DNA from: Vermamoeba vermiformis
Lineage: Eukaryota
Direction of reading: 5' to 3'
Length of the DNA: 64,000 nt
NCBI GenBank assembly: GCA_045837725.1
Contig: JBEWZL010000121.1
Span: forward strand, 124,001-188,000
Shown: positions 1-62,413 of the stretch, one piece after another
Numbering within the stretch: the stretch's first letter is position 1
Layout: each line of letters opens with the position of its first letter
Translations under genes and position numbers: made by a program
Notes under the pieces: generated by a model
The model's input: the letters and a program-made list of their open reading frames with translations, nothing else
Told to the model about the DNA's origin: nothing
Databases searched by the model: none

Positions 1-251
1 TGCCACGAGAACTTACATTTTAAATCTGCATGCGTTTTTTGTAACGGCTATATTCCTTGCAAACGACCAGGTCTTGCCTCGAACTGCTCGTGAACTGAGT
101 ATATATTATGCTTCTATCCTCCTTTTCCGCTAAGGGACTAACTCAGTGTCTCCTTTTTCGAGTCTTTAAAAAAAAAAAAACCGTTTCTCGATTTAATTTT
201 AAACCTGCTGCGCTACACATCACCTAATCCAATCGTATTATAGCAGCAACA

Positions 252-2933
252 ATGGAGAAGAATGGGCTTGAAGTAGACCACAACGTGCCGCACTCCATCT
301 GGCTTTACCTTCCAACAGAACTGTGGTTTCAAATATTTCAATGGTTAAGAGCTACTCGATATATAGCATTAATAGGCGCATTATCGAAAGGCTTCAGAGA
401 GTTCATGATAGAGTATTTTAAATCCGTTGGTCCGTGGATGAACAAAAATATGAACGTTGCGATTGTTGGTGCTCCTGCAGTTGGTAAGTTGATTAAACAT
501 TAATAATATAATAATATCTTTAGTATTATTTGAGTTAAAATTTATTTTTGCGAGCAATTTTAGATCAGCTGATATTTTGCGAATTTTCAAAGAATGCCAA
601 TTGTACCTTCTAACGCTTATTATAGGAAAAACCACTATGCTTGCTCACCTTTTTCTTCAATCACGCCTAAATAACATCGAGCATCGATTCGCCAATTTCA
701 TGGCAAAAAACAATAAGCTGCCCGTAACATCGCATTATAATTCGTTCCTTAATGCTCGCAATGCTAAACATCCTATAACATATACGCAACATATTCGACC
801 TTTTTACTTCGACACTAGTCTGCACCACTTTACCTTTTTTGATAGTCCCGGATGTGCACGACGATTAATCACTGCGTATCGTATTTGCTCTCAAGTAAGC
901 AATATATTACCACATTATATGATTTAAATGCTTATTTGTACGCAATTATAGGTTAATACCGCTATTTTGGTGCTTCAACGCAAACAAGAGCTCGATCTGG
1001 ACTGGTTAATCAGTGGTGTAACTGCAGTATGGACGTCATTAACGCACTCGCACTTTATTATTGCCGTCAATTATAGCCACGGTATTTTTACTCAACCTAG
1101 TAAGTACTCGCACGAAAAAAAGGATCGTACTAGTACCTTAAAAATTCATAATTTATTTTTCTTTGCTTTGAGCTTAAAAATAGTGTCATTAATATAAGGA
1201 GCGCTAATACGGCCTATATTTAATATTGGAAGGATTATTAATGATAATTTGCTTTAGATTGGGAAGCAGATCAAAAACTACTTTACGAGAAATTGGTTAA
1301 GGCAGTGCCTGCAAAGTTGCTTTCTAATATTAAACTGATTCCGATCAACGCACTTGAAGGGTTTAATGTTTACTCGCCTCATGCCGGCATCGATGACTCG
1401 AACATCTGGTAAGTCGGTTAATCAGCTTCAAAATTCAATTTTATACAGAAATTATTATTTAAGTCCTATACGTCTTAATTTGTGATATATAAATATAGGT
1501 ATAACGGCCCTACATTATATCGAGCATTACATGCTATATGGGAGAAGTTGGAATATCCTGCCGAACGGATCGAGAAGCCGTTTTCGATGACAGTCCTTCG
1601 CCCTATGAAAGTTGGTGGAGTAGGACCCATTATTGCCGGAGCAGTTAATAGTAAGGAGATTAGAATCATATTTGACGTTTAAGCCAAATCTAAAAAATAT
1701 TTCCTTTTTAGGCGGATGTCTCAAACCCGGAATGAAACTTCGCGTTTGCTGCTCTGGTTTCCCAGCGACTCCATTAGTAGTTCATTCTATCCAGCATAAT
1801 GGCAGAAATATGGACGAAGCTAAACCCTCCGATTATATTGGAATTTCATTCACATCCGCTTCAAGAACTCAAATAACCGGCTGGAACATACTCGAAAAAG
1901 TCAAATATGGCATGATAGTGGCCGATAATAATAATCCTCCGAAGAGAGTCAAGTCGTTTACGGCGGCTATTGCTATCGTAAGTAGTCACAAGAATTTCGT
2001 ACAAAAAAATATCGAATTTTATTCTCCGGAGCGTTTTTCGGCATTACAATCACGAAGTTAAATTAGCACTATGAACGGTCTATAATAATTAGTCTTTTCA
2101 AATATTTATTCCAAAAGTTTTGGTACCGCGTACCTACACTACTTTTGATGACAAAAAATCTACTGTAATTGCAAGTTGAGTACTCGCAAGTAGTTGAATG
2201 GGTAGTAGGTGCCCTTGTTAGCAAGTAGTGACCCGAACACGACGTTGCAGCAGGTCTCGGGCACGACCACACTAACAAGAATGCACCGCTTCCCGTCCGA
2301 TCAGCGAAGTTAAGCTTGTTCAGGCCTTCTTAGTACTGGGGTAGGAGACTACCTGGGAATCGGAGGTGTTGTGCTCTTTACTTTTTTGCTTTTTGCGACC
2401 GTTCATAGTGCTTTTTATTCTAAGAACCAACGAGCGCAACATGCGATCCACATCCGCATTCCGCTGACATTTTTGTTTTGCACAGACGTCTTCTAGAGCT
2501 GGTCAGCTTCGGGAAGGGCAACAGTACAAGGCTATTTATCAAGGAAATCACATCTTTGTCGTGTTCAAAACTTTTGTTCAAGTCCTCGACAAGGATCACA
2601 AAGAGGTCACTCGAAAAAACCTTCATCCAGGTAACCCTTCATTCCGATAATTATTATTATTTAATTACTCTGTTTAATTTTATTTATTAAACTATGATTA
2701 TTTGTGCAGGCGATTCGTGCTTAGCATTGTGCATCCCGACGCAAGAGATGTGGACGTACCCCAAGACCAACAACAGAAATCAAAAGAAGGACGGACGCGA
2801 TGTAATATTGTTCACCACTCAACGCCGCATATCCGCTGTTGGTCGTATTGATGCGATAACTTTCTTTGAAGATAACGAAGTTGCTCAGCAACCGAAACAA
2901 TTTGCTCATGGAAGACAACCTGAAATAAAATAA
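252..2933 (+). CDS. F-box domain fused to a divergent eEF1A/HBS1-like translational GTPase (domains I-III), multi-exon
   Basis: N-terminal F-box-like LPTELWFQIFQWL. Spliced P-loop GAPAVG|KTT (intron 484-625), DSPG (G3), IPINALEG..WYNGPTL, KPFSMTVLRPMKVGGVG, domain II VHSIQHNGRNMDEAKPSDYIG. After intron 1978-2485, domain III reads TSSRAGQLREG...LHPGDSCL...ISAVGRI, stop 2931-2933. Confidence 0.8.
2259..2377 (+). rRNA. 5S rRNA gene (copy 1), inside intron 1978-2485 of the F-box/EF1A-like gene
   Basis: 119 nt with GGGCACGAC...GTTGTGCTC terminal helix, conserved CCCGTCCGATC, GAAGTTAAGC, TTAGTACTGG and CCTGGGAAT, followed by oligo-T Pol III terminators. Confidence 0.95.
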
Positions 2934-3645
2934 GCGATGGAAAATTAGCATATTATGTAACGGATAAGTATTAATATTTATGAATAATATGAATAAATTG
3001 TAAAATAAATAAATTAAACGCACGAGACGTGTTCGTTTGTTGAGAGAGAGACAATAAAATCGCGCGTACAGACAAATAAATTGACCGTACTTAATAATGA
3101 CATTCGTCACAATTAATATTGAAGTAATATGGTTTATCGTAGCCGTATTCGTGGTTTCATTTTTAGTCAAGTTTGTTTTTATGTGCCGTTGAAGTATTTC
3201 GCATAAGGCTGTGTATATTTAAAGCACACGAGGTACGGTAATCATAGAATTATAATAACGAGGTAAATATCGTAACAGGTGTGGAATAACAGATTCGTTT
3301 TACTTGAAAAATTAGTCAGAGAGCTCCTTCTGTTATAATATTATAATATTATTTTATGCACGTAAGCAATATTCCTATTATTTAAATTAATTAATTACCT
3401 CTATGGTGGGGGTCTGTGAATCTGCAGATGCGATTATTTTAAAATCCCAATTTATTTAAAATATGAAATTGCCGGAATTATGATCACATATATTTTAGTT
3501 ATGCATTTAACTGAATCAATAATTCAAAATTATTGCAGATATTTGGCAATGCCGAAACGATTTTATTCGAAAGCTATTTACAGAGCTTATTCTTACATGA
3601 GTTCAATTTACATATCATTACATTAATATCCATCGGTAATATTAA

Positions 3646-4048
3646 TTAGTACCGCTCAGGATTGAATTCGTGCAATTTTTCAGCGAGCTCCCAAAAGTCT
3701 CGGATCTGAATAATTTGCAACAGCTCTTCAAATGATACTTGACCATTGCCATCAGTATCAGCCATCTTGAATAGCTCTTCGGGGAATTTCCAGCGCGATT
3801 CTGGCGTGTTTATCTCAACACGAGATCCTTTTCCAAGGATCTTGACAAAATCGATTGCGAATCTGCGGAACTCAGCGCTGTTTAAGAAGCCTCTATTATC
3901 TCTATCATATTGTTTAAGCACCTTCTGCACTTTATTCTTATTCGTTGGCTCTTTGACTGCCGCTGACACGACTTTCATGTCGTTACCCTACATCCGCTGT
4001 CAATTTTCTTTTCATCGCTAATTACAAATTATTTTTTATACTTACCAT
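3646..4048 (-). CDS. Small EF-hand Ca2+-binding protein, probably N-myristoylated (copy A)
   Basis: ATG-only first exon 4046-4048 and intron 3988-4045 give MGNDMKVVS. EF loops DRDNRGFLNSAE and DTDGNGQVSFEE. Confidence 0.85.
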
Positions 4049-5199: not shown

Positions 5200-5601
5200 C
5201 TAATACTTCTCTGGGCAGAATTCATGCAATTTTTCAGCGAGTTCCCAAAAGTCTCGGATCTGAAGTATGCGCAACAGCTCTTCAAATGATACTTGACCAT
5301 TGCCATCAGTATCAGCCATCTTGAATAGCTCTTCAGGGAATTTCCAAGTGGACTCTGGTGTGTTTATAGCGACGTGAGCTTTTCCAAGGACCTTTACAAA
5401 ATCGATCGCGAATCTGCGAAACTCCGAACTTTTCAAGTAGCCTCTGTTGCCTTTATCGTATCGCCTGAACATTTTTCTTATCTTTCGATCATTATTTGGC
5501 TCTTCAATGGCTTCTGAAATAACTTGCATGTCGTTACCCTGCATGCGGACGCTCTTAATTTATTTCAACACTAATTAAGAACCGAAAACGATACTTACCA
5601 T
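5200..5601 (-). CDS. Small EF-hand Ca2+-binding protein, probably N-myristoylated (copy B, tandem paralogue)
   Basis: ATG-only first exon 5599-5601 gives MGNDMQVISE. EF loops DKGNRGYLKSSE and DTDGNGQVSFEE. C-terminal half nearly identical to copy A. Confidence 0.85.
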
Positions 5602-10464: not shown

Positions 10465-10792
10465 ATTATTGTCTTAAGTTGAAGAACAAACCCCAATATG
10501 ATTTGTTCCGTAACTGTTTTATTAATAACGCGTATTTGGCCGTATTTTTTTCCGACGGATTTTTGCAATGGAATATTCTTCGACCTTTCCTCAAATACAG
10601 CTGAGGGTTTTTATGGCCGATTAACTGGGCAACTTTTAAAGCTAACATCAATTAATTATGTGCCCGAACGGCAGAGAGTGCATCGTTCGTTCATGTCTTG
10701 GTAAAACTTTTTTTGTTTTTTGTTTTTTGTATTAAATTGCGCAACACCACAAGTCACAACAAACGCTTGCGTTCAATTAAGCTGTGACAAGC

Positions 10793-12457
10793 ATGACAGA
10801 TAACCGACCTGCCGTTAAAGAAATAAGGTTTTCGGACGGAACTCCAGTCCCACTAGATGCAGACGAATTGGTGGTGTTTGTTGGCGGCAACAATGTGGGC
10901 AAATCAACGGTCCTGAAAGATATTTTCAGCTTGATAGGAGGAAGCGAACAGAGCCATAACCCAATAGTGGTCAAAGCTGCCAGCATGCACGAAAGAGAGC
11001 CAAACTTGATAATAAAAAAGTATGCTTCTACTGAAAAAAGAACGGTTGGTGATCGCGTGCTCCACTTCATAAATGGAACAGCTCTTCAAGTGCTTGACAA
11101 CTACTCTATGGCCAACGTGAGGGGCATCATGCGCGTGCTGGTGGACTACCTTGACAGCCCTAAACTCAGTGGAATCTGTTCTCCCAGCATCGAAGCCATT
11201 GGAGCCGATCGCACCAACGAGGCCCAAAACCCTTTTCAACTTCTCTTGCATAATACTTCCCTTCGAAACCAGTTCTACGAGCAGTGCGAGGCAATTTTTG
11301 GTGCAGGTCCCTTGATTGACGCCCTGCATGGTAACCCTCTCACAACCTATTGGGGAAAAAGACCTTCAGATACTACAGACCCAAGCGACCCCCACTCTGC
11401 AAGGATTCGACAATTTCCCAAATTACACGAGCAAGGGGATGGTACAAAGAGAGTCGTAGCAATCTTGGCATCGCTTTTGGTGCGCAAAAAAGCCATGTAC
11501 TTTGTCGACGAGCCTGAGATTCATCTTCACCCCCCACAGTGTGTTAAGTTGGCAAAGGAGATTGCAAGCAGTGCCAGGGACTGCCAGATGTTCATCGCCA
11601 CGCATTCAATTGACTTCTTGCACGGACTATTGGATTGCAAGGATATCAAGTTGAAAATCATTCGCATAACAAGAGAAGGAAACATCAACAAACCATTTAT
11701 CTTGTCTCCAGATGAGCTCAAAGAATTGTGGACTGACACCTATCTGCGCTATTCGAAAATACTCGATGGCATCTTTTACGACAAGCTTGTGCTTTGCGAA
11801 GCCGATGCTGACTGCCGATTTTACCAATTTGTGTATGACAACAGGATTGCTACCGATCAATCAGCCCTCTTTTGCCCAGTTGGTAGTAAAGATAAATTCA
11901 AACAACTGGTGGCCCCACTTCGATCAATTGGGTTAGCTCCAAAGATTATCGTTGACTTAGATGGACTGAATGGCAGTACTTTAGGAGATATTCTTAAAGG
12001 ATTAGACTTGACTACTGAACGGAAATCAATCCAAAATGATTTACAGCACGTCAAAGAAGCAATTGAAGCAAACAAAAAATCAGTCATCATCAACGACGTG
12101 AAACAGACTCTATTGTCTTATTTTGGTAGTATTTCAGAGGAAATTGCAACAAAGGACAATTTAAAGAAACTAAAAGAGCTGATTCCGTCACCATCAGCAT
12201 GGACAGAGGTTAAACACAAAGGTGTCGCATGCTTTAGCGATATTGAACAAAAGACCAATAAGCCACTTATCGCACCATTTGAACGAGTTAACAACATATT
12301 GCTGAAGTGTGGTATATTACTCGTTACAGTAGGCGAGTTAGAACGTTGGTTGAAGTGCGGAAAAGGGCCAAAAGCTGTTTTGAAAAAGATGGGAGAGCAT
12401 CCCGACGTAAACGACAAAATTTATGACGAGGTTACCGAATTTTTAAAGAAACTCTAA
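10793..12457 (+). CDS. Intronless OLD-family (GajA/P2 Old-like) ABC-ATPase + TOPRIM nuclease
   Basis: Walker A VFVGGNNVGKS, signature-like QGDG, Walker B/D-loop YFVDEPEIHLHP, H-loop FIATHS. TOPRIM LVLCEADAD...GSKDK...IIVDLD, distal GELE. Single uninterrupted ORF, first ATG 10793, AATAAA at 12481. Confidence 0.88.
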   Translation: MTDNRPAVKEIRFSDGTPVPLDADELVVFVGGNNVGKSTVLKDIFSLIGGSEQSHNPIVVKAASMHEREPNLIIKKYASTEKRTVGDRVLHFINGTALQVLDNYSMANVRGIMRVLVDYLDSPKLSGICSPSIEAIGADRTNEAQNPFQLLLHNTSLRNQFYEQCEAIFGAGPLIDALHGNPLTTYWGKRPSDTTDPSDPHSARIRQFPKLHEQGDGTKRVVAILASLLVRKKAMYFVDEPEIHLHPPQCVKLAKEIASSARDCQMFIATHSIDFLHGLLDCKDIKLKIIRITREGNINKPFILSPDELKELWTDTYLRYSKILDGIFYDKLVLCEADADCRFYQFVYDNRIATDQSALFCPVGSKDKFKQLVAPLRSIGLAPKIIVDLDGLNGSTLGDILKGLDLTTERKSIQNDLQHVKEAIEANKKSVIINDVKQTLLSYFGSISEEIATKDNLKKLKELIPSPSAWTEVKHKGVACFSDIEQKTNKPLIAPFERVNNILLKCGILLVTVGELERWLKCGKGPKAVLKKMGEHPDVNDKIYDEVTEFLKKL

Positions 12458-12575: not shown

Positions 12576-15500
12576 CTACTTCAAAGTTACGATAAATGTC
12601 TTGATATCCATAGGATTCAAGGTTACAACGAAGGCGCTGGCAGATCCAAACAACTCAGCAGCGGATCTTTGTCTCTCGGATTCGACATTCCAACGAGGCA
12701 ATTGCACTTCATTTACAGGCAAAGCACCAGTCAATGACATCTCCTCAACCTTGCTGAAGGACAAATTGACGAATAGTTGCGAGATATCGATGGACACTGG
12801 CTTAGACAGGCGCGAGTCCTCATCCACACCTTGAAGAAAAAATTAAGTTTAAATGAATCTTTTACGACAATGTTATAAGACTTACTGTAAATATGATGCA
12901 ATCTGAACAAAATTTTCTTCTCTTCGATGAATTCAGCGTTGAGAATTTTGACGTTCTTCGGAAGTGCCTCCGGTTTGAGCGGAGCAAAGCTAGTTTTGTA
13001 TTGATTGGTCCACAAATTAATATCATCAGTAGTGCTGAAGAATAACAACACGGGGTTTTGCAATTGCTCGGTCAAGTTTCTGTAACGGCTTGCGGCAAGT
13101 TGGACGGGGCTGTAAATCAACTTTTGGTGCGTGAGAATAGGCACAGTCTCGTTAAGAGGCTCGCCAACACCACGACCATCATCGACTAAGCAACGACGAT
13201 GCATCATAACTTCAAACTGACCGTCGACAATGCTCGATCCACCTTGACTGCGATCCGTCAACAAACTGTTCCAGAAGATATTAGTATCATTATCATTATG
13301 CTATAAAGTATATCTATGACTTACGTCAATTGAGTGGCTTTGTCTTTGATCGAAATGATAGAGTTGACAGGAGCGTAGTTGCCGCTGACAGGCTCAGTGT
13401 TGACAAAAGGCCACGTGGCACGATAATTTCTCTGACGAGTGATGAGCTCGAGGCCATTAGAGTCTGTGTAGAAGTAGCCGTGTGTGTTCATGTCTGATGT
13501 ATATTGAGTGATCACTTCCTTGCCAGTGTTGTCGCTGATATCTGTCATACCACTGTGTTAGCACGTGAATTACCATATTAGGCAATAGTTCATACCAATA
13601 GGACCGACATGATTGAACACGTCTAGATGGTCACGATCGTTGTAGAGTCTGAAGACTTGCCAGTTCCACGCGTACTTGAGCTGGACCTCGTTGAACAAGG
13701 GACCATTCAACACTTGCGCGCTGACTGGCTTGAGAACTGTCAAGTTGCCAGTGGGTCTGAAGATGTAAGCGCCAGAGGCTTGGCTCGAGTCCATATCACC
13801 AACGTTGCTAGTGTAGTACGCGAGACGTTGAGTGATGTCAACCTAAAAGCAACCAATCAGCAACAAGCATTTAAGACTAAAATACGACGTACATCTTGGT
13901 CAGTGTTCTTGTTCACGATCTGCTTGAGGTTCAATTGACTGTCGAACACAACCTTGATATTGTCGTTCTCCAAAACAGTGTCTAAAATACAGATGTTAGA
14001 GGTCACATGCATTCCAAGCAATCGATTCACCTCCAAATGGCTTGGTAACTTTAGATTCCGTCTCAGGCTTGCTGTTCGAGGCAGGAGCAATGAAGTACGT
14101 GCTGAAGCCCAGTGCTGGGATTTGAGCCTCGAAGGCAACAGTATTTACGTTGTGAATGTTTCTGTATTGTTGGAAGGGCAAGGGATTGCCTGCCTGGTCA
14201 AAGACTATTTACAGTGGTTAGAACGCGTCATAAAGTATCTGTTTGGCAGTACCTTGAACTTGACCAGCGACAGGAATGTCCAGCCATTCAGCACGAGGCC
14301 ACGAAGTAGGGTTGTAGACTACAACTGGCACGATCTTGCCCTTGATCAAGTTATCAGTGACGGCTGGGCAGAAGGTCTCGTTGAGCAACGGACACGCCTT
14401 GAATGAAGGAACATCACCCTTGGGGTCGCTGGAGATCTACAACAAATTCTTAGTTTGCATCAATTACCCGGTTAACGCGAGCTCGTTGATTCGTACCAGC
14501 TTGCCAATAAGAGTTCCCATGACATCAAAACTGTTGAACATGCCAATGGAGAGCCGCTTAGTATAGTCGTAATCAACGTGTTGCTTGGCAGTACCGCTTC
14601 AAAGATGTCAAAATCAGTCGCGTGTCAAAAGTTCGAATTTTCAGACGATAGCTTACGTGACACTGTCGTGATGTTGTGCGATGCCCATAGCCTCTTGCAA
14701 AGTGAAAATCTTCTCGGCGAGTGATTTACGATCGATCACACTGTCGGGCAACGATGACGTGGCAAACAGACCTTGAACAGAGTGCAACAAACTGCTCATT
14801 TGACGCACGTATCCTTTGTAAGCAGATCTGCTCGTGAAATAACCAGTCCAGAAAGCGTGAGGGTTATCAGCGTATGGGAAGAAGTCGTCGTACTTGATAG
14901 GGAACGAGGCATTAGAAGACTTGTGGATGGCGTCAACATATTGAGAGGGCGTGCTGTAGAACATCTTGACGTTGTATTCGCTCGCGTGGTCATTAACATA
15001 GTTCATGAGCTTGTCCAAGTTCTGGAAATTTCATAGAAAAATGATTATTTAGGATTAGAGCATCCAGGTTAATAAACAAATGAGAAAATCTCGTGTAGTA
15101 GTCGTATAGTTAAAGTTATTAATTTCAAATATGATTGTTTCGTGCAAAGCTTTTACCTTGAAATTCAAACGAGCGTTGCTGAACTGGAAGTCGCAGCCCC
15201 AAGGAATAAACAATTCGTTCGTTTTGAATGACTTAGCGCGGTCGAGCATTAATTCTACGAATTTGTCGGCGCGCTGCTTGACGTTCATATCAAACAAACG
15301 AGGGTCATCTTGAATTGGCGGATCACCCTACAAAAATTGGAAGATTAGTTTGAAGCTCAGAAAGGGTACTATACATTTAGTAGATCGCTTGCGATGTGTT
15401 TTAAGATCAAAATGCATTTGTAGACAAAAATAGCAATGTCTAAACAAGCCATAAATAGAGCTATTTTTCGGGATCCCTGCGTCGGCGTAATCTCCGCCGA

Positions 15501-16748
15501 AAAGATCCAAATCTAGATAAAATTGAGCTTACCCATTCAAAGGCAAAACCGCCAAACCCGTAGCAATAGGTCGTAGCGTACATTGAGTGCGTAAAGATCT
15601 GCGCCTTGTTGCCCATACTTCGGCTAGGCTGCCAAATCATTTCCAAACCACGTACAGACGGGTCAGAACGTACATTATAGTCTTCGTAGTCAATTCTAGC
15701 GAAGAAAAATGCTCGGAAGATTTGTGCGAAGAGCGCTGCTTGGGTTGAGGAATGCCCAAACGGATCTGCATCAACAAGTAAATACAATACTCTCAAATAT
15801 CATAATGATATACAGTACTCCTATATCATATGGAAGTGGCTGAAACTTACCAATGTGCCAGCCAATTACAGGGATCGCGTGCTTGCCAAACTCGCTCAAC
15901 AAAAATCGATGACCAAGGGTTAATTGATCAACAATATCCGTATAATAAGTAGCTGCCTCATCATTCATGGACCAGCCACCATTAATGAACTCCAAGCGGC
16001 CTTCTTTAACGAGTTTTCTAACGAGATCTTTTGTATCGTCCGTCTGCTCGTTCCACCAACGCCAGAAAAATGCCATTTCGACGTATATAAACTTCTTATT
16101 AGGATCCTTAGAGAGTTCAGTGATGACCTAAAACAAATAAGAGAATCAGAAAAACAGTGTAACGGTTTGAATCCGGATTTGTTACATTATCAATAATCAT
16201 CTGCACGTTAGCATCTTGAATGCTCGCATTAGAGCCAATATAATATTCATCGACAGTTTTCAACCAGCCAACATCCTAATGAAAGAAAATTGAATCAATA
16301 AAAATCAGGCACTTGCTTCGCATCATTTAATTAATTACAAAATCATGCAAAAAATAGTTCGTAAGCAATAATTAAATGAAATTAATATTAATAGTAATTA
16401 GTGTGGATCAACAGGTGAACACAGACGAAGTGTCAACCGGAAAAAATCTCTTAATTAATTAAATATTTATGCAGGCGAATATAACGCATAGCATTACATA
16501 AATTAAGTATTAATTTATATTATGGGCTTACTGATTTAATTTTATAAATAAAATTAAAGGTCCAAACGTAAAAAAATTACTGAGTGCTTTCTGGCCAAGT
16601 AAAAAATACTTACATCGTGAGTATGAGCCACAATATGAATATTAAGTGGCTGAGTAAGTTGTTTTTTCGGTTTTGACTTTGCAAAACAAAGATCGCATCC
16701 GGCCAAGAGCACCACAACGAACAGTAGTACTGATATAGCCCGTGACAT
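12576..16748 (-). CDS. Lysosomal-type alpha-mannosidase (GH38), multi-exon
   Basis: Signal peptide, [111 protein letters not shown]. Confidence 0.95.
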
Positions 16749-18658
16749 AATGTCGTATTAATAATCAAATAAGAACAGCAATAAATCTTATGTGGCTATC
16801 AATACTCGGATCAAACTCAAAAGACGACGAAAGATTTTTTTGTTTAAAATGAGGTACATAAACGCTTCCATGCCGAGCGTTCCCAGACTTGTACGAATAG
16901 GCCCAGTACTTCGTTAAATCCTCCTACACTAACGTAATGGAGTTAAAAACAAGAGAGGAATTGCAGCGAACGTACCGCAGGCGAAATCTCCGCGATCATC
17001 GAAAAGAAAATTTCAGTCTATAATAACCGTAGCAATAGTCCTTCTAATTATACGTTGTACTCAACTCCGTGTACAATGTTTGAAATTCAGTATATGTTTG
17101 TACTCGTCGAGGAATTCGGTTTCAAATTCAAAGTCCTAAATTTACGCACCTTAGCTGACTTGTGTTTCTGCCGCAGATTCATGATCACTCGTAAATATGC
17201 GTATTATAATCTATTTTGCAGTCAATTAGGCCTATTGAGGTATTTACCGATGTAGATGACTGATTCCTTAATTTGGTAATAAATTAGTATTATTTGACTG
17301 CATCGACCAATGCGCAAACAAGAAACCTAATCATTAATCAAGCAAGACCTTTTAAAGTTGTCGATGAGCTGTTCTTCGCCTTGTCTCCCCAAGCCAACGC
17401 CAATAAGTTTTTCCGTGCTATGGGCCGAAGTTAATTCCTACCATGATTTTTCCGTAGCTCTACCTCACATCGCTGATTATGAATGACATGATTAGTCGTT
17501 TGATGGCTTACTAAACCCGAGTAGAGACTTGGAAGTCGTTGATAAATTAACGAAATGTCAATGACATACTCGTATGTCTGAATGAGTATTTATCGAAACC
17601 AAAGCCGCTTCGCATTTTGGTCAAAATGAGCGATTGTGATCGCTTGCAATTCATATGCAAGTGGACAGTTGTGCTTGACATGTGCACGCAGATCTGAGGC
17701 ACAATAACTGGTTAGTTGTGCCCTCTTACGATAACACCGACTCAGAATAGTACTGCCTATTACTAATATTTTCGACCGATCATTCGGTTGGCTGTCATCC
17801 ATGTCAAGAAAAAAACATCGATGGAACGAATGCAGGACCAAAGTCTTCCTATAAACAGTAAAATTTAAATAGCCTATTGAAAACTACGCGAATTTGTGCG
17901 TCGTCTTAGGAAGCAGATGAATAATCTGGCGAGGTTAGGCGGAGATTGCCCATTACTTTGGTAAACTGCACTAATTCTTCCGAGTCGTTACGAATATTTT
18001 TGGCAAGGCTCACAAAGCACTGCTTGCCATAAAGACTCATAAGGAAATTAGATGCACAAAGGGATTGTGAGCAAGCAATCGGTAAATTGGCATAAGCTGG
18101 TTATTCCTGCGATAATTTCGATCTTTGGGCTTGTCAACCCTTGCTATTCTGCCGAAGCGTCTATTTAACATCTGCTTACGGCTCGATAAGAGATCGGCGA
18201 AGTAGTTAACCGTGATCGTCTCCTGTGTTTGGCAGGCGATGTACGATGTCAATCGGTAAGCTATGATCCATCGATCAGAGTTAATACCCAATTGACGCAG
18301 CTCATGATTTAAAGCATTAAAGATCTTCCCATTCTACTCGCTATGAGTTTGTTTGAGATTTCTACGAAAGCAGCGGATTGCATCCCAGCGCGTGCCCGAA
18401 GCGGATTATCGTCGCTTAATTTAGCTTTAAACGGTAATTCTCGATGATAGAACTAAAGTTGTCAATTTTCCAGCTCACATATAATATTCCACCGGAGACA
18501 CGTGTAATGCCAAAAATACCATTTTTGAAAGGATATAAATAATTAAGCTTTCATCACTTTAATTCCAGCTTCAAGTGAAAGCCAACACAAGGCAACATTA
18601 AACGACTTCGGCTTCGTATCGTAAAGACTCATATATATTATTCTCTGAACTTACCGAA

Positions 18659-20348: not shown

Positions 20349-20421
20349 TGCGCCCGACGGGACTTGAACCCGCAGCCTCCTGGTTCGTAGCCAGACACTC
20401 TACCACTTGAGCCACGAGCGC
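20349..20421 (-). tRNA. tRNA-Arg(ACG)
   Basis: Reverse complement GCGCTCG TGGCTCAAGTGGTAGAGT GTCTGG CT-ACG-AA CCAGG AGGCT GCGGGTTCAAGTCCCGT CGGGCGC A, with a T-run downstream. Confidence 0.95.
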
Positions 20422-35833: not shown

Positions 35834-35904
35834 AGGCGCCACCAAGAATCGAACTTGGACAATCGACTCATGAGACCGAGGCTCTACCACTAAGCTATGG
35901 CGCC
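35834..35904 (-). tRNA. tRNA-Met(CAT), elongator-like
   Basis: Reverse complement GGCGCCA TAGCTTAGTGGTAGAGCC TCGGT CT-CAT-GA GTCGA TTGT CCAAGTTCGATTCTTGG TGGCGCC T, with T7 terminator. Confidence 0.88.
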
Positions 35905-36225: not shown

Positions 36226-36299
36226 TAGCCGTTCCAGGCTTCGATCCTGGGCCCTTCGACTTATGAAAACGACGCTCTAACCTTCTGAGCTAAACGGCT
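36226..36299 (-). tRNA. tRNA-Met(CAT) with initiator-like A1:U72 and AUCG T-loop, atypical anticodon stem
   Basis: Reverse complement AGCCGTT TAGCTCAGAAGGTTAGAGCG TCGTT TT-CAT-AA GTCGA AGGGC CCAGG ATCGAAG CCTGG AACGGCT A, with T5 terminator. Confidence 0.82.
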
Positions 36300-39257: not shown

Positions 39258-42200
39258 ATGCGCTCATCACTACGGCTAGCACTACTCATGGTAGTGTTGG
39301 CAGTTGCTGTTAATGCTGTCACATTGAACTACAAAAGCGGTCAGATCTACTCTTACAAGTATCGTGCTGAACATATCACTCGAGATCGAGATGATCAAGG
39401 TGGTTTTCAGACCAGCTCTGGCACAGCACACGAGGTACGTATTAACTCACTAAATATTATGCTAATTAGCAACTTATTTATTTATTTTGGTTCCTTTAGA
39501 TCCTCGCGGATATTCTCATCGTCGGCAGTTCTTCATCGGAGTTTTATTGCCAAATGGACATTATTGGCATGAAGATATTCTCCTATGAGAACGTTTCTAA
39601 GCGCTTTGAGGAAGATTACGAGCATAGCCCAGTTCTCGAATCGATGATGAAACAATACTCGTTGTATTTTTCATTAACGATTAATGGCGAGATCTTCAAC
39701 ATTCTAGCGCACGACAGCGAGCCTTTGACGACGCTGAACTTGAAGCGTGGCCTTCTTAGCTCCTTGCAGACTAAGCTCTTGTCTGGCGAAGAGCTGAAGA
39801 AGCGATCTGCCGGAGAAAATGGTCTTGAACCTCTTACTGCTCAGGAGACCGATGTGGCTGGTAAGTCTTAGTAAATGATCCTTCGTTGGACAAGTCTATA
39901 ATGTTTTAGAATTCGGTCATGTTTCAAAATCCTCGTTGACGTTTTGACTTACTGGATCTGTGCATCTAGGTGAGTGTCCGACTTCATTCAACTATGAGGA
40001 AGACCAAAACACCAACCACTTGGTCATCAAGAAGCAGAAGAATCCTGTCAACTGCTCTCGCCGCCCTTTGAAAATCAAATCGAAATCCCGATCTCAGTTC
40101 AACGAGCCTGAAGTCCGTTCGAACATTGAGGGATATCATAAAGTCGATTTGAACTCACAAGTCATCACTCGTTCAACTATGAAGGAAGAGCACGTGATGA
40201 CTCCCATCGAACAGGGCATCCGTGGCTTGTCTACTCACGTCTCAACATTCTTGAAGCTTCTTAAAGTCAAAGAGTCTCCCAACAAACGTAGCTTGGCCGT
40301 GCATTCTGACTGGAATTCACTCCTCAAGTTTGTCAAGAGATCGCATCCGATCAAGGTTGCTGACTTGGTTTTCGAGCACGAAGATGAAACCGACGAACCT
40401 CCTAAGTGGCTCAAGTAAGTACTCAAAAAAAAGATTCGCTACCGGTATACTGCCGTAATGACTGAAAATTAACTAACGATTGCACAACAGACGAAATGTC
40501 GAGGACGAATCGGAGAAACTTGAGCAAAACTGGTTGTCAGTGAAAGAGCTCGCTGAAATCTCTGTCCTTCATCCCAGATCCGACCTTAGCCGCGCTAACT
40601 TCGAGAAGATTGTTGCTGCCTTCAAGCAACAGCCTGGCCTCGTTTCATATGCTGTCGAGCAAGTGAAACAAGACTGCTGCAACAACGGCACTATTGCAAT
40701 CTTAATCGATGTGTTCGTGCGGATCAATACTAAGCAGTCCATCGATGCAATCATTAACGAGTTCTACATTTCTGGTAAGTCGGTATCATTGATTTAAGAT
40801 ACGATGAACTTTTGACAGCCATCAAACTTTTGCAAATAATTTGTGATCTGATTCGGTCTATTTTTAGAAACCTTTTCGGAAACCATCCGAATTCGCGCCA
40901 TTCAAACACTTAGCTTCGTGTTGCGCCCTTCGATTGATTGGCTCGAGCCTCTCTATCAACGCATCTCCTTCCCTATGGAATCGATCCTCGAAAAGCAATT
41001 GGTCTTGACTGTTGGTGGTTCTATTCGCCGCTTCCTTCACAGCAATCCTGACAAGTTCTCGTCTGTCCAACCAATGATTGACGGTCTTCTTAAGGTCATG
41101 AAGTCAACGCAGATCATCAGCGGACAAGATTGTTCTGATTCGTGCCCTCGGTAACACGGCCTCCGACTACGTGATCAACGACATCATCCCGGCTTTAGAG
41201 AGCTTTGACGAGCCCCGTCTTCAATTGGCAGCGATCAGTGCCTTAGACAAAGTGCTCAAAGACGCTACTGAGAAGAAATCCATCGATAAGACCAAGGCTG
41301 CTTTGTTAGAGACCTACTTCGATCGCTTGAACACGTTGGAAGTGCGCATGCAAGTCATCAAGGTCTTGTTGCACTCCAACCCTCAAGTGTTGAGCGGTGA
41401 AGACATTGAGTACTTGGTGGACTCGCTCACTATTGAGGCACAATGGGAGGCTGGCGAGTACTTGATTAGCAGTCTTCGCTCGGCATCTCAGAAGGAAGTC
41501 ATCGTTGCTTCTCATCTCCGTAGATTACACGACAACTCGACTTCAATTTGGCGCCATGACATTCAGATCCCTCGTGACCAGTACTTCATGCAACTTCAGA
41601 GCAGAAAGCGTGACATTATCAATGAGCTCCTCGGTGACGTAAGTCTTCAATAGGTTTCGTATTGAATGTGGATTGACACGTGTCACTAGGCTATCGGCAA
41701 GGACCGGTTCAACGTCGACTTTGGCGAGTGTAATGCCAAGAACCTCAAGATTGGTGGTAACGCCTTCGGTGCTAGTTTCAGTGCTAGTAAGTACAGTTTG
41801 CAGTTACAATGTTCGGTTCGAGATCTAATACATTTGATAGCCTTCTGTAACGTCGCCAAGGCCAAGTGGCCCATCTTCGGTTTCCCCACTGTTCTATTGA
41901 AAGCTGAAGATCGTGTCACTGCCGAAGCACATGCTCTCGGTTTCAAGATCACTTTCTGCGACATTGGTGTTGATATGGGTGCTCAAACTGGTACCTGGAT
42001 CCCAGGCATTGAGACGATGAAGAAACGAGCAGCCTTGCCCGCGAAGCGCTCCATTGAAGAGGTCCAAAAGAACTTGTTTGGCTTCAGTGGCCCCGAGATC
42101 TCGTGCCCTTCACAACTTCCTGTCAACTGCGGTGTTGGCAAATGCACTTCCACAGTTGAAGAGTGTATCATGGTCCGCGGTATTGAGCTCGCTAAGGCCG

Positions 42201-45200
42201 GTAAGTATAATATTGTACGACTTCGTAAGCCAAGCACTAACCGATCGCTTAGCCCAATGGAACTTCTTGACGGACATTACTTCGATCACCTCTTTCAAGT
42301 ACTGCACTCCTAAGAATAACGGTGCAACTGATTGCACGAGCGTGAACTCAACCAAAACTGATCTCGATGAGTGGTTGCCCGAAGGGTACGTCGACAACTT
42401 CCTTTGCGCTTGTGATGCAATTCCTGATGACACGAACCTGGCTAATTGTAAGTCACTAACGGCTTATTTATTTTGATCAATACTGACTTAACTTGAAGCC
42501 TCGTACATTGGCTCCAACATTTGCGTCAAGAAAGCCATTCAAGACAGGTTGTTGAACGGCTATGACGCAGACAAGGCCGGCTACAAGCAATTGAAGGACG
42601 ACTTGGCCAAAGACATTGCCAAGGTCAAGCAAGATTATGACGACTTGGTTGCCTTGAACCCTGACTTCGCCAATCCCTTCATGCTCGAACTCTCTATTCG
42701 AGCATTGAAGGACCTCTACTTCGTTCAAATCACTCCTCTGATGACTCAATTGGCTCAAGACTGGATTGATGCCTACAAGGACTGTTGTTGCACGACCTCA
42801 CCGTAAGTGTTGTGCCTTGACTCACCCCGCGCTCGACATTTTGCTAATGATCTTTGTAGGACTTGGTTCTCGGCTTGGCTCGCTGCTGTTCGAGTAAACT
42901 TGAAGAAAGAACTCGGTACTCCTGGCTGCGACTTCATCAAGAAGAACTTCGAGACATTCGCGTGGTGCGATGACAAGCGTACTCTGATCAACCCTGTCAT
43001 CAAGGACGAGTACTTCTTCGTCATTCTCGAAGTTGATATGATCGAGCAGCTCTTCGACTTGCCGGGTGATGCTACTGGCCATCACCATCTGTTCAAAGGC
43101 AAGCGATCTGGCGACAACGATTTGCCCGACATCAACCCCGATGACTTCAAGGACGGCTGCTTGACTGGCAAGTTGAAGGGTCCTGATGAGGTGACCGGAA
43201 ACATCCAATTGTTCCACTACTCGTACTCCATTCCTGTCTACTCTGGCATCTTCCTCGACTTCGATTTTGGTGCTGGCTTGAACTACGGCATCAACTTCAC
43301 TGTTGACTTCTGCTTCCTGTCGATGCAAGCCAGCGCCCGAGGAGGACCTTATGGTGCTGTCACTGCTTCCGTCTCAGCTGCCATCTCATTCTTCATTATT
43401 CGAGCTGGTGTTGAAGTCCAAGCGACACTTCTTGCCACCCAAATCCCCGCTACTGCCTCTATCAAGCTCTTGGAATGGCCTTTGCAAATGTGCTTCACTT
43501 TAGATCGCATTACAACCCCACTATCAGTGACGGTCTCAGTCTTCTTCCAAATCAGATGGAAGATCGTCTTCCTTGGCTTAGACTGGGGTGACAAGATCAA
43601 GTACCCAATCGGAGGTTGGTCCATGGATCCAATTGCCGACAACATCCTCACTACCTGTCAAAAGAAAGAGGCTCCTGTGCCTAAGGGCATCACTAAGCTC
43701 ATCGAGTTAGACGAGGACGAGCTGCTACAGGATGTGCACGTGGACATGCAAGACGATAAGCGTGGCAGTGTATTGTTACACGCTCGTGGTGCTGGTACCG
43801 TGACGATCAAGGATTCCAATCAAGGCACTTTTGATTACAAGCCCGTTGCCTTCAGCGACAAGGCTGTAAGTTATATCATCTAGTACGCTTTTGTTCCTAA
43901 CATTCATGTGCAGGACCAATTCACCTTCGTCGCCACGGACGGTGAAGTGACATCTCCTCCTACAACCGTAAACTTCAAGATCTATCCTATCGCCAACACT
44001 CCCAAGATTTCTGTGAAGCAAGCACAAGGCTGGGAAGGTAAGTCTTGAGCTCGATTGTCATCGTCTTATATTGCACGCGTTCTAATACTGTTCTCAGACG
44101 CTGGACCAATCTCCTTGAATGTTGTTGCAAACCTCACGGACGTTGATGGTTCCGAAAGCTTGTCTGTCGTTATTTGCAACTGCTTCGAGTCCAATCAAGA
44201 CAACGACGTCAAGGGTGATCGTTGCGACAACTGCCCGTTTACCGCTAACGACGATCAAGTCGACACTGACGGCGATGGCGTTGGTGATGCTTGCTGTGAA
44301 AGCAAGTTGCGAGCTTGGTGGAAGTTCGACGAGACTATGGGCACGTACGCCGCTGACTCCAGTCAGTTCGGAAACCACATGAAGATTATGGGTGGTCGCT
44401 GGAACCAGACTGATGCCAGAAGCAAGGGCAGCTTGAATATGGCTTATACTAAGACTAAGGTTAAGCCCAACGAGATCAACTCGCTCGGCTTTAACTATAC
44501 CTTCTCCATCTCTCTTTGGCACAAGATTGACACTACACGAGCCCTATCACATGCTTCTATCCCTCTCATTCGAAGGTACGCCGCAGAGCAAGATATTATA
44601 TTTGCGGAGTCCTAATTAAATGCTCAGAGTGCATTCTGATCGCGGAGATGCCTGGTCTTTAAGCGTCACGCAAATATCTGGCTTCATTTGGTACAGCTTC
44701 TATGGTGGTGGAGGCGGATGGAATTCAGACACGATCTACCCTGTCAATCCAACGCAATGGCACCACGTAGTTTTGACTGTTACTCCCGGTCAACAACCGT
44801 TGTTTTATTTTGACGGTCAATTGAAGACTAGCTCGAACGCACCAGTGTTCAATGGCCCGTTGAACTCCCGTCCCAGTGATTACATGGTCTTGGGCGATCA
44901 ACAAGCCTTCTTCGGTCAGTTGGACGATGTTCAAATCTACCTTGACTTCCTGCCTGCCAATCACGTCAGATTCTTGTATCAATATCCTGGCAAGCGCTTG
45001 GCTGCTGGCGACGTCGATAAGGACGGCATTGGTGATATGTGTGGTACGTAGATGGAATTGGATTTAGATTGTAGCTAACTCTTTGCACCTGCAGACACGT
45101 GCCCTGGCCGATACAACCCTGATCAAGGAGACGTCAAGGACGCGTGCTGTTTGCGAGTAGCTCACGTCTTCTCTGAAGAGAAATTTGGCACTGACCAATC

Positions 45201-51200: not shown

Positions 51201-51541
51201 CCTTTGCGACATCACTGGTCGAAGCTGAACTGCACGTATTGTTCAGTGTCGAGCGCCGATTGACTAACGCCAACTACGAGCAACAACTGTACTACAAGTT
51301 GACTGACAGTGATCTCGCCATGAGTGCCCCATTCACCGTCAATGTGTTGCCCGACGGACCTTCGACGAGTTTCACACCAGATGGCAGTACGAATGCTGAC
51401 AAGTTCCCTGACTGGGCCATTGCAGTTATAGTGATTGGCAGTGCCTTGATCATTGGTGGCGTGATTACGTTGACCGTGTTGATGGTGAAACGAAGAAACA
51501 ATAAGAAGAGCTCCTCAGACACCAAGATCGAAATGAAGTAA
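39258..51541 (+). CDS. Giant type-I membrane protein (roughly 3,300-3,500 aa, estimated): vitellogenin/LLTP-like N-terminus, TSP type-3 repeats, two LamG-like domains, cadherin/Ig-like VNDAP repeats, Cys-rich repeats, ZP-like region, TM; apparent frameshift near 41110
   Basis: Signal MRSSLRLALLMVVLAVAVNA. LNLKRGLLSSLQ, ETDVA|GECPTSF, KIVLIRALGNT (vitellogenin-N-like). DRCDNCPFTANDDQVDTDGDGVGDAC (TSP3). WKFDE..WHHVVLT..GQLDDVQIY (LamG). Repeated VNDAP/VNDPP and DNGNTG/DNGNFG/DNGFTG. GCCL/GACC repeats. TM WAIAVIVIGSALIIGGVITLTVLMV followed by KRR. Confidence 0.8.
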
Positions 51542-52047
51542 CAAAGTCATTTCAATTTCATCACTTTGCATTTAATTTACGACCAATAATAAAGCTTATT
51601 AAGCTATTAGTAGATTCTTTCAATTACGAACTACCGTGCGATCTAAATTTAGACACCTGCCCACAAAAACTTCCGCGAGAATTCTCAACTCATTTTTTTG
51701 TCAGCTACTGCTATCACCACAGCAGATATTGTTTGTTGTTATATCTTATATATTTGATTACCTTGCCACCTTAGCTTCGATCGGTAAGTTGTTCGTTTGA
51801 AGACACCGCCAAATAATTTTGCTTTACATATGTTCTTAGCTGCAATTATCTGACGGATATAGTGTATTACAACGGCATTTAATACGTGTATTCTGTGAAT
51901 ATTCCAATTTTTATTTTGATTTTAGTCTTTATCGATTGTATTTTTCTAATATCTTACTAATTGCCAGGCCGATCTTATTTAATTTAATAAGTGATGAGAT
52001 TCTAATATCATTATTTTTTATTTTCACAGCCAATTCAATTTCACAAG

Positions 52048-60863: not shown

Positions 60864-62413
<1,550 letters not shown>

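Follow-up and report, generated by a model that had tools for sequence, protein, structure and literature searches.

An F-box joined to a degenerate EF1A-like body in a Vermamoeba vermiformis protein: a candidate SCF substrate receptor

Introduction

Ski7, Hbs1 and eRF3 are paralogues within the EF1A family that carry N-terminal adaptor extensions. Ski7 lacks the catalytic histidine and is an example of a translational GTPase that has become a pseudo-GTPase adaptor. Links have also been drawn between eEF1A itself and degradation that is ubiquitin-dependent or co-translational. F-box proteins of the FBXO ('other domain') type are SCF substrate receptors; they carry an F-box, with an LPxE...IF..L core, at the N-terminus and a binding domain at the C-terminus. 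Several F-box proteins have SCF-independent roles. No FBXO class whose body is EF1A-like or of the translational-GTPase type is known to us, and a literature search gave no description of an F-box fused to EF1A; part of that search was swamped by FBXO papers and is weak evidence of absence.

Here we describe an amoebal protein in which these two kinds of module are combined. It shares with eEF1A and aEF1A (GTP_EFTU, GTP_EFTU_D2 and GTP-eEF1A_C) the same three-domain fold in the same order, finds its best sequence and structure matches among them, and keeps the P-loop and the DxPG motif. It differs from them in having an N-terminal F-box, in its low identity (about 25%), in the replacement of the catalytic His by Cys and of NKxD by NYSH, in the loss of the GRF motif, and in a basic insert in domain III. 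Like Ski7, Hbs1 and eRF3 it pairs an EF1A-like docking module with an N-terminal extension of a kind that recruits another machine, and like Ski7 it lacks the catalytic His; here, however, the extension is an F-box rather than a recruiter of the exosome/Ski complex or of PABP, and so points to a ubiquitin ligase. It also differs from Hbs1 and eRF3 in that its group stands apart from the clade of P0017, and in that the PDB scores of its relative P0002 against them are no better than those against EF1A. The arrangement is that of FBXO proteins, but the body is EF1A-like and the protein's own F-box falls below Pfam cut-offs. The same F-box plus EF1A-like architecture is found in proteins of Balamuthia (P0056) and Cavostelium (P0086), and in P0117 and P0030, all of which are less degenerate than the protein described here.

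Results

The gene is intact and spliced

The 64-kb stretch of DNA that we analysed (the window) contains, at 252-2933 on the + strand, a gene of eight exons with a CDS of 1587 nt and a predicted product of 528 aa; all seven introns are GT..AG. The start codon is the first in-frame ATG past a stop, and the five initial residues are the same as those of the relative P0002. The features of the locus are as follows.

252..483, + strand: exon 1, with the start codon, F-box, linker, first G-domain strand and first half of the P-loop
297..419, + strand: F-box coding stretch (residues 16-56), with the LPxE...IF..L core at 309-338
484-625, + strand: intron 1, which interrupts the P-loop GAPAVGKT
626..894, + strand: exon 2, with the P-loop remainder, switch I region and G3; X1 contigs lie over 711-888
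952..1099, + strand: exon 3, with the G-domain core and degenerate G4
1258..1408, + strand: exon 4, with the end of the G domain and a G5-like NAL at 1347-1355
1499..1650, + strand: exon 5, with the domain I-II linker (WYNGPTL) and the start of domain II
1712..1977, + strand: exon 6, with the domain II beta-barrel; an X13 contig lies over 1715-1973
2259..2377, + strand: 5S rRNA gene (Rfam RF00001, 104.7 bits against a gathering score of 38), within intron 6 (1978-2485) and outside the protein
2486..2630, + strand: exon 7, with the first half of domain III
2710..2933, + strand: exon 8, with the rest of domain III, the basic insert, VILFT at 2802-2816 in place of the GRF motif, and the stop codon

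Contigs from run X1, whose status as RNA is recorded by guess only, lie on exons only and carry the joints 482->625 and 1650->1712, both GT..AG, so that introns 1 and 5 are absent from them exactly as in the gene model. The first of these joints crosses intron 1 and thus connects the F-box exon to the GTPase exons. The connection, on which the initial annotation depended, is borne out also by collinearity with P0002 (530 aa) from end to end: residues 1-523 of 528 align, with 347/531 identities (65%), and the alignment is unbroken at every exon junction. A further relative, P0003, is 47.9% identical to the window protein and 48% identical to P0002, and single exons are matched by database fragments, among them P0007, which is 98.6% identical to exon 8.

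RNA-seq runs X17 and X19, which bear the same species label, gave no reads that fit the window gene along its exons; the matches in these two runs were partial and came from paralogues, and expression of the window copy may therefore be low. A tblastn search with the spliced protein found no second copy of the gene in the 64-kb window. The only match from this search (14471-14247, 28 bits, E 0.035) lies inside another gene, which by eye is alpha-mannosidase-like. Exon 6, used as a query for longer proteins, gave no match. The spliced window protein was analysed directly in local comparisons, while single exons and P0002, as a stand-in, were used for other searches.

An EF1A-like body of three domains

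We found that the body of the protein resembles EF1A in all three domains, far beyond chance, with an EF-Tu-type G domain followed in order by EF1A-type domains II and III. In a blastp comparison the spliced window protein matched P0037, a canonical eEF1A-type protein, over residues 66-468 (E 5e-28), and its identity to canonical eEF1A is about 25%. P0002 passes the Pfam cut-offs for GTP_EFTU (PF00009; 38.5 bits, cut-off 26.5) and for D2 (32.5 bits, cut-off 30.3), its domain III falls below the cut-off (14.4 bits vs 27), and P0003 reaches 38.7 bits for GTP_EFTU (cut-off 26.5). Even single exons of the window gene lean in the same direction: exon 6 matches GTP_EFTU_D2 at E 0.23, and in a phmmer search with exon 5 the five best PDB matches are all to archaeal EF1A, at the corresponding position (E 0.17-0.44). 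When P0002 was compared with the PDB by phmmer, a/eEF1A came first (6e-17), residues 66-469 aligning to yeast eEF1A 7-409; the scores were 64.4 bits for EF1A, 45.6 for Hbs1 and 21.7 for eRF3, and the same order, EF1A above Hbs1 above eRF3, holds for the less diverged members P0056 and P0117.

Structure prediction agrees with these comparisons. The AF2 model of P0002 (pLDDT 78.7, pTM 0.81) matched eEF1A and aEF1A in Foldseek with E values of 1e-30 to 4e-32 over about 480 columns, and its TMt was 0.79-0.84 to GTP-state or ribosome-bound forms as against 0.41-0.47 to GDP forms. In the ESM Atlas the closest clusters resemble EF1A; several come from giant viruses and no score exceeds 0.85, and we treat these as leads only.

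Family evidence points to an F-box at the N-terminus

The initial annotation had read the N-terminus as an F-box. Judged by gathering scores for the two Pfam families tested (PF00646 and PF12937), the window protein itself stays below both cut-offs: exon 1 scores 16.8 bits for F-box-like (E 0.0058, cut-off 24.3) and 12 bits for F-box (cut-off 20.5). Its close relatives P0002 (15.6 bits) and P0003 (14.1 bits) are likewise below the F-box-like cut-off, as are the family's N-terminal fragments, all six of which match F-box-like (best E 1.1e-4). The assignment is upheld instead through more distant members. P0056 (29.4 and 27.7), P0117 (31.4) and P0030 (25.1) pass a Pfam F-box cut-off, while P0086, at 21.6, is below it. 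An HMM built from the N-termini of these four proteins, with the window group left out, finds the window protein at E 7e-4 among 167 sequences, and in the same set P0002 at E 3.7e-5 and P0154 at E 2.6e-6. An hhalign comparison of the window-group N-terminus with the four distant N-termini gave a probability of 91.4% (E 9e-7, 34 columns). By these two comparisons the N-terminus of the window protein is homologous to accepted F-boxes.

The F-box core L-P-x-E-[IL]...I-[FC]..L and the later [SN]-[KR]-x-[FW] are present in window residues 20-48; across 12 family sequences there is no variation at L20, E23 and I28 and almost none at F29 and L32. Against the PDB the family profile matches one entry only, the Cdc4 F-box (E 1.3). 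AF2 predicts three N-terminal helices (22-31, 34-41/43 and 46-59/66) at low pLDDT (52-72). Modelled in isolation, the N-terminus reaches a pLDDT of just 57.9, a low confidence; with this model, Foldseek returned no significant match (one row, E 9.7), and the best hits of a VIA wide search were unrelated helical proteins (best Z 5.0), with the F-box regions of cyclin F and Cdc4 at Z 3.6 and 3.3, within noise. Drawing as it does on family evidence, the call of a putative F-box in the window protein itself is weaker than the EF1A call.

GTPase motifs are degenerate under continued constraint

All of the motifs that the initial annotation quoted are present in the window protein, at the following places.

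468..633, + strand: P-loop GAPAVGKT (residues 73-80), across the exon 1/2 junction
760-780, + strand: switch I NAKHPIT (residues 123-129)
841-855, + strand: G3 DSPGC (residues 150-154)
1069-1080, + strand: G4 NYSH (residues 207-210)

The P-loop and DxPG are intact, but three elements are gone: the catalytic His, NKxD and, in domain III, the GRF motif. The position of the catalytic His is occupied by Cys in the window protein and by Trp in P0002, and G4 reads NYTR or NYKP in relatives. Across seven F-box/EF1A-like proteins, GxxxxGK[ST] is kept in all seven, the catalytic His in two and NKxD in one. Because the window protein does not carry the canonical set of G1, G3 with the catalytic His and G4 NKxD, we class it as a homologue within the EF1A family and not as a canonical GTPase member. 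The parts with which EF1A holds its ligands, namely the PLQDVY-type stretch of domain II, GRVETG and the domain-III GRF, are also altered.

Conservation is uneven along the protein. Between the window protein and P0002 the F-box (84%) and the P-loop stretch (82%) are best conserved, compared with 65% overall, whereas domain II is among the least conserved parts (53%) and, against P0003, is at 35% the lowest of the structured regions. The X1 and X13 contigs, the latter from a root metatranscriptome, differ from the gene at eight positions, six of them synonymous and two non-synonymous. A metagenome scan by protein alignment, for DNA of relatives that would allow dN/dS and intron comparisons, yielded 175 pattern matches, none of them confirmed, and a search for the WMNKNMNVAI motif with a degenerate DNA pattern yielded no matches. 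The combination of lost motifs with signs of constraint (P-loop conservation and mostly synonymous differences) would mark the window protein, as judged from sequence, as a pseudo-GTPase.

The architecture recurs in other protists

The combination of an F-box with an EF1A-like body is found in other protists as well. An F-box followed by GTP_EFTU, D2 and D3 is carried by Balamuthia mandrillaris KAL6049269.1 (P0056), Cavostelium apophysatum EukProt P020681 (P0086), P0117 and P0030, and the named carriers are amoebozoans. These proteins are distant from the window group: identity to window exon 1 is 18-22% for P0056, P0117 and P0086 and 34% for P0030, and all four show 20-21% identity to P0002 over full length. 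They are nonetheless less degenerate than the window protein, with GRF kept in all four, the His kept in P0056, and GxxxxGKS, DTPGH and NKCD kept in P0117. Nearer to the window protein, the family is multi-copy and diverging, with at least the window protein, P0002, P0003, P0016 and two expressed paralogues seen in reads; in databases its members are named 'translation elongation factor EF-1alpha' or 'hypothetical'.

A free tree search placed the seven F-box members in two groups. In an AU test the tree that unites them in a single clade had the higher likelihood (AU p 0.845), and a single origin of the fusion, on this phylogenetic evidence, is not rejected. We note that long branches may help to draw the F-box members together in the tree. 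The window group falls neither in the eEF1A clade nor in the clade with P0017, the one row with an Hbs1-like name.

Discussion

The architecture proposed in the initial annotation, an F-box followed by three EF1A-like domains, proves correct on the gene model, the family evidence for the F-box and the EF1A matches. We consider it somewhat better than an even chance that the protein is an SCF-type substrate receptor with a hydrolysis-impaired EF1A paralogue as its recognition module. The F-box would dock on Skp1 in a cullin-RING ligase of the SCF type. To go by its motifs, the EF1A-like body probably still holds nucleotide and would be unable to hydrolyse it in the way that translational GTPases do on the ribosome; held in this state, it could offer a fixed surface for binding and so present a putative target for ubiquitination, and domain II, as the least conserved part, would be the likeliest specificity surface. 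The earlier reading as a pseudo-GTPase substrate adaptor is reasonable in view of the retained P-loop and DxPG and the loss of the catalytic His and NKxD. Its further idea of eEF1A mimicry fares worse, since the changes in the PLQDVY-type stretch, GRVETG and GRF argue against a faithful mimic.

A specific form of the substrate-receptor reading, which we regard as rather unlikely, is that the EF1A-like body, as in Hbs1, eRF3 and Ski7, binds to the factor site of the ribosome or to a ribosome-bound partner, and that the F-box thereby recruits SCF for quality control coupled to translation, at ribosomes or nascent chains. Factors that contact the GTPase centre of the ribosome have this fold, the model is most like ribosome-bound, GTP-state forms, and the full canonical motif set of P0117 suggests that in its ancestral form the fusion was still active as a translational GTPase. 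The AF2 preference for a closed state, however, may be a property of the method, and the loss of the catalytic His, NKxD and GRF in the window group, together with a domain II that is the fastest-changing part, is not what would be expected for a conserved ribosome contact. That same rapid change in domain II, in a multi-copy and diverging family, could instead be taken to suit a decoy, an eEF1A mimic fused to an F-box that would trap partners of eEF1A, for instance pathogen effectors or viral factors, for degradation. Amoebae are hosts of intracellular bacteria, and the named carriers of the architecture are amoebozoans. Yet with about 25% identity to real eEF1A and with conserved eEF1A surface motifs replaced, mimicry would be poor, and we think a decoy very improbable. 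It is also possible, at low probability, that the EF1A-like part holds the primary function and that the F-box serves outside SCF, either by linking an EF1A-like NTPase with Skp1 in a complex that is not a ligase or mainly by controlling the protein's own turnover. SCF-independent roles of F-box proteins are the subject of a review (PMC3814724), and the strong conservation of the P-loop suggests that the nucleotide state matters; nothing speaks specifically against this possibility, but an N-terminal F-box with a C-terminal binding domain is the standard arrangement of a substrate receptor.

Two other explanations deny the fusion a role of this kind. Database names of relatives ('translation elongation factor EF-1alpha') and the passing Pfam scores of P0002 for GTP_EFTU and D2 might suggest an ordinary translation factor, an orthologue of eEF1A, Hbs1 or eRF3 with an N-terminal extension, but the substitution of Cys for His and NYSH for NKxD, the loss of GRF, the low identity to canonical eEF1A and the position in the tree outside both the eEF1A and the P0017 clades leave this barely credible. 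Long branches, degenerate motifs and little or no expression of the window copy in X17 and X19 might likewise indicate a duplicate that is decaying without function. Such a duplicate would not be expected to keep its frame intact over eight exons, to be represented by spliced RNA-like contigs, to be conserved over its full length with P0002 and P0003, most highly in the F-box and P-loop, or to show six synonymous against two non-synonymous polymorphisms, and we give this explanation very little weight.

The substrate-receptor reading may have a wider counterpart, which we offer as doubtful. Protist cullin-RING receptors with a nucleotide-locked EF1A mimic might couple SCF to the translation machinery, whether at the ribosomal factor site or through capture of partners of EF1A-type factors, among them perhaps factors of intracellular parasites; an active F-box GTPase like P0117 would then have given rise to the hydrolysis-dead adaptor of the window lineage.

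F-box proteins and EF1A paralogues are each well known, and their fusion is not described in the literature that we searched. Being a gene fusion, it leads one to expect that SCF ubiquitination is functionally tied to whatever the EF1A-like body binds. The long-standing but vaguely defined relation of eEF1A to ubiquitin-dependent degradation thereby becomes testable in one protein, and the graded natural series that runs from the canonical P0117 to the degenerate window protein should help in studies of the way in which a pseudo-GTPase adaptor arises from a translational GTPase.

Structure of the gene

The window is eukaryotic DNA with a GC content of 34-49%, and the gene at 252-2933 on its forward strand comprises eight exons and seven GT..AG introns (57-508 nt), with a coding sequence of 1587 nt that specifies a protein of 528 aa. 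The start codon lies at 252 and is the first ATG in frame downstream of a stop. The gene model is backed by three independent lines of evidence. The close relative P0002 (530 aa) aligns with residues 1-523 of the spliced window protein (347/531 identities) with every exon junction undisrupted, and a second relative, P0003 (520 aa), is 48% identical. Short database fragments, which originate in prokaryote-style gene calls on genomic contigs, match single exons of such genes, and one of them, P0007, shares 98.6% identity with exon 8. Lastly, of the four sequencing runs that we aligned to window 150-3100, X1, which we can only guess to be RNA, gave contigs with coverage confined to exons and with joints at 482->625 (intron 1) and 1650->1712 (intron 5), both GT..AG, and exon 6 is covered by a contig of X13, a root metatranscriptome. 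The X1 joints and the collinearity of P0002 thus show that exon 1 is joined to the GTPase exons, on which the initial annotation had depended. Among the reads placed for X17 and X19 (121 and 80, respectively), two runs of raw RNA reads that share the species label, none fits the exons of the window copy, and depth lies almost entirely on the 5S gene of intron 6.

An EF1A-like body follows the F-box

P0002 served as stand-in for the window protein in Pfam searches, phmmer searches of the PDB and AF2 modelling. Single exons score weakly, the five best PDB matches of exon 5 alone being archaeal EF1A at the right position (E 0.17-0.44). Pfam finds GTP_EFTU (38.5 bits, cut-off 26.5) and GTP_EFTU_D2 (32.5 bits, cut-off 30.3) in P0002, and GTP-eEF1A_C at 14.4 bits, under its cut-off of 27. 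With phmmer, 32 distinct PDB sequences are matched at E <= 0.01, led by a/eEF1A (6e-17), then eEF1A and Hbs1 (~3e-11), then EF-Tu, eRF3 and SelB; residues 66-469 align to 7-409 of yeast eEF1A. The AF2 model (81-row alignment, pLDDT 78.7, pTM 0.81) matches eEF1A/aEF1A in Foldseek at E down to 4e-32, with TMt of 0.79-0.84 against GTP-state or ribosome-bound structures and 0.41-0.47 against GDP forms. The window's own spliced protein aligns with P0037, a canonical eEF1A-type protein, over residues 66-468 (25.9% identity, E 5e-28). All three EF1A-like domains that had been proposed are thereby confirmed.

The N-terminus of the window protein scores 16.8 bits against the Pfam F-box-like cut-off of 24.3 (E 0.0058), and those of P0002 and P0003 likewise fall under Pfam F-box cut-offs. 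When the whole library was searched with P0002 by HMMER, 489 matches were obtained at E <= 1e-3, and among the best 150 of these, which were listed, are at least four more distant full-length proteins of the same architecture: P0056, a hypothetical protein of Balamuthia mandrillaris; P0086, from the transcriptome of Cavostelium apophysatum; P0030, from a different EukProt transcriptome; and P0117, from JGI/IMG data, as are P0002 and P0003. P0056, P0117 and P0030 each clear a Pfam F-box cut-off, whereas P0086, at 21.6, stays below it. An HMM of these four N-termini, built with the window group (the window protein and its P0002/P0003-type relatives) excluded, recovers the window protein with E 7e-4, and hhalign of the same four against the window-group N-termini gives 91% probability. 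F-box-like is matched, at scores under its cut-off, by all six N-terminal family fragments, and no other family consistently; the core LPxE...IF..L is invariant or nearly so in the family. The window-group profile returned a single row from 177,635 PDB sequences, the Cdc4 F-box, at E 1.3. AF2 predicts three helices here with low confidence, and structure searches with the isolated N-terminal model were uninformative. Although the window's own score is below the cut-off, we accept homology to the F-box on this convergent family evidence, with Skp1 binding as a putative function.

GTPase motifs and constraint

The four altered motifs singled out by the initial annotation (GAPAVGKT, NAKHPIT, DSPGC and NYSH) are all found in their places.

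GTPase motifs in the seven F-box/EF1A-like proteins, aligned against canonical eEF1A-type rows
P-loop GxxxxGK[ST]: intact in 7/7
DxPG: intact in 6/7
Catalytic His: retained in 2/7 (P0056, P0117); its place is taken by Cys in P0003 and the window protein and by Trp in P0002
NKxD: retained in 1/7 (P0117, as NKCD); the window protein reads NYSH
Domain-III GRF motif: retained in 4/7; the window group has other residues here, beside a basic insert

Because the P-loop and DxPG are kept and the His and NKxD are lost, the window protein retains the phosphate-binding half of the pocket and lacks the residues that confer guanine specificity and ribosome-triggered hydrolysis. The domain-II stretches PLQDVY and GRVETG of EF1A-type rows are also changed in it; in EF1A these stretches are contact sites for aminoacyl-tRNA and for partners of the eRF1/Pelota type.

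Identity by region between the window protein and its relatives P0002 (first value) and P0003 (second value)
F-box: 84%, 55%
Linker and P-loop: 82%, 64%
Domain III: 70%, 39%
Rest of G domain: 62%, 53%
Domain II: 53%, 35%
Whole protein: 65%, 45%

In this pattern the ligase handle and the nucleotide pocket are conserved and domain II changes fast, as would be expected of a working F-box receptor and not of a copy in decay. Of the 8 differences that separate the window from near-identical contigs of X1 and X13, a small sample, 6 are synonymous.

Family and evolution

Against PDB sequences, less diverged members score EF1A > Hbs1 > eRF3, so that "eEF1A-like" is the right label. A tree of 55 rows was built on 437 core columns, which leave out those of the F-box. 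In it the seven F-box proteins split into two long-branched groups, neither of which lies within the canonical eEF1A clade or that of P0017, the sole row named Hbs1-like. One clade for all seven is not rejected by the AU test (p 0.845; log-likelihood +22.45 for the tree joining them). The simplest reading is that the fusion arose once, although attraction between long branches may contribute to the grouping.

Several copies make up the family (the window protein, P0002, P0003 and the P0016 lineage), with one copy within the 64-kb window. X17/X19 RNA reads match window 435-477 only, then diverge, and encode P-loop variants; since they run on without a break into sequence resembling exon 2, they derive from spliced transcripts of paralogues. 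We note that these 43 nt (end of exon 1, WMNKNMNVAI..G) match paralogue reads at >=90% with both flanks divergent, an unusually strong nucleotide conservation for which gene conversion, an RNA element or the most constrained peptide are possible explanations.

A 5S rRNA gene in intron 6 and neighbouring features

Intron 6 (1978-2485, 508 nt) is the longest by far and holds a 5S gene.

2259-2377, forward (sense to the host gene), complete 5S rRNA gene, 104.7 bits, inside intron 6
55875-55993, forward, second, identical 5S copy, 53 kb away

The shared unit of 237 bp (2223-2457 and 55839-56071, 94.5% identical) is larger than the 5S gene, so conserved flanks travel with it; many other 5S flanks are carried by RNA reads, which points to a dispersed 5S family. 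In two X17 reads a run of 19 A directly follows the 5S 3' end (window 2378); either polyadenylation of 5S RNA or an artefact could account for it.

Other features of the window are as follows.

3646-3987, reverse, EF-hand protein exon (EF-hand_1, E 2e-13)
5218-5461, 248-bp duplicate of that exon, 86% identical, 1.5 kb off
10781-12457, forward, intronless 558-aa ORF, AAA_21/AAA_15 ATPase matches (E 3e-15 / 2e-14)
12700-16800, reverse, multi-exon gene, ORF translations GH38 alpha-mannosidase-like by eye
20349-20421, 35834-35904, 36226-36299 (-), three tRNA genes
40000-52000, G+C 46-49% vs 34-44% elsewhere, strong negative GC skew, many long forward-strand ORFs
42807-43883, ORF, borderline MTP lipid-binding domain match (26.6 bits, cut-off 27)
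60864-61871, reverse, ORF matching Glyoxalase (E 2e-15) and the HPPD N-terminal domain (E 4e-5), similar to 4-hydroxyphenylpyruvate dioxygenase or to a protein of the glyoxalase fold

AAA_21/AAA_15 families are typical of bacterial AbiEii/OLD-like systems; the 558-aa ORF is odd amid an intron-rich eukaryotic region and may reflect transfer or a mobile element. The high-G+C block is probably a large lipid-transfer protein gene.

A candidate substrate receptor

On balance, we think it somewhat probable that the window protein is an SCF-type substrate receptor, whose F-box would dock on Skp1 and whose EF1A-like body would act as the recognition module. The body would probably be nucleotide-bound and incapable of the hydrolysis typical of translational GTPases, with domain II as the probable specificity surface. 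Our data establish the architecture, the splicing, the state of the motifs, the fold and the conservation pattern; engagement of Skp1/SCF, binding of a nucleotide and a substrate to be recognised are predicted from these. That such a receptor is directed to the ribosome seems unlikely, and we give the same low weight to an F-box used independently of SCF or for self-regulation.

The initial annotation had proposed a pseudo-GTPase adaptor that mimics eEF1A as a decoy for eEF1A-binding proteins or effectors. Motif losses around a conserved pocket are consistent with the pseudo-GTPase adaptor, but the window protein resembles real eEF1A poorly at conserved ligand surfaces, and the decoy is accordingly very improbable. 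We would put decay of a duplicate equally low, given that the F-box and P-loop are conserved as in a working receptor, and an ordinary translation factor is the least credible reading of all.

Full-text literature searches, partly swamped by unrelated FBXO papers and with supplements outside their scope, returned no description of an F-box/EF1A-type GTPase fusion, and family members lie in the databases unannotated or mislabelled. The window protein would be novel on two counts, as the body of an FBXO-type protein and as an EF1A-paralogue adaptor comparable to Ski7 and Hbs1.
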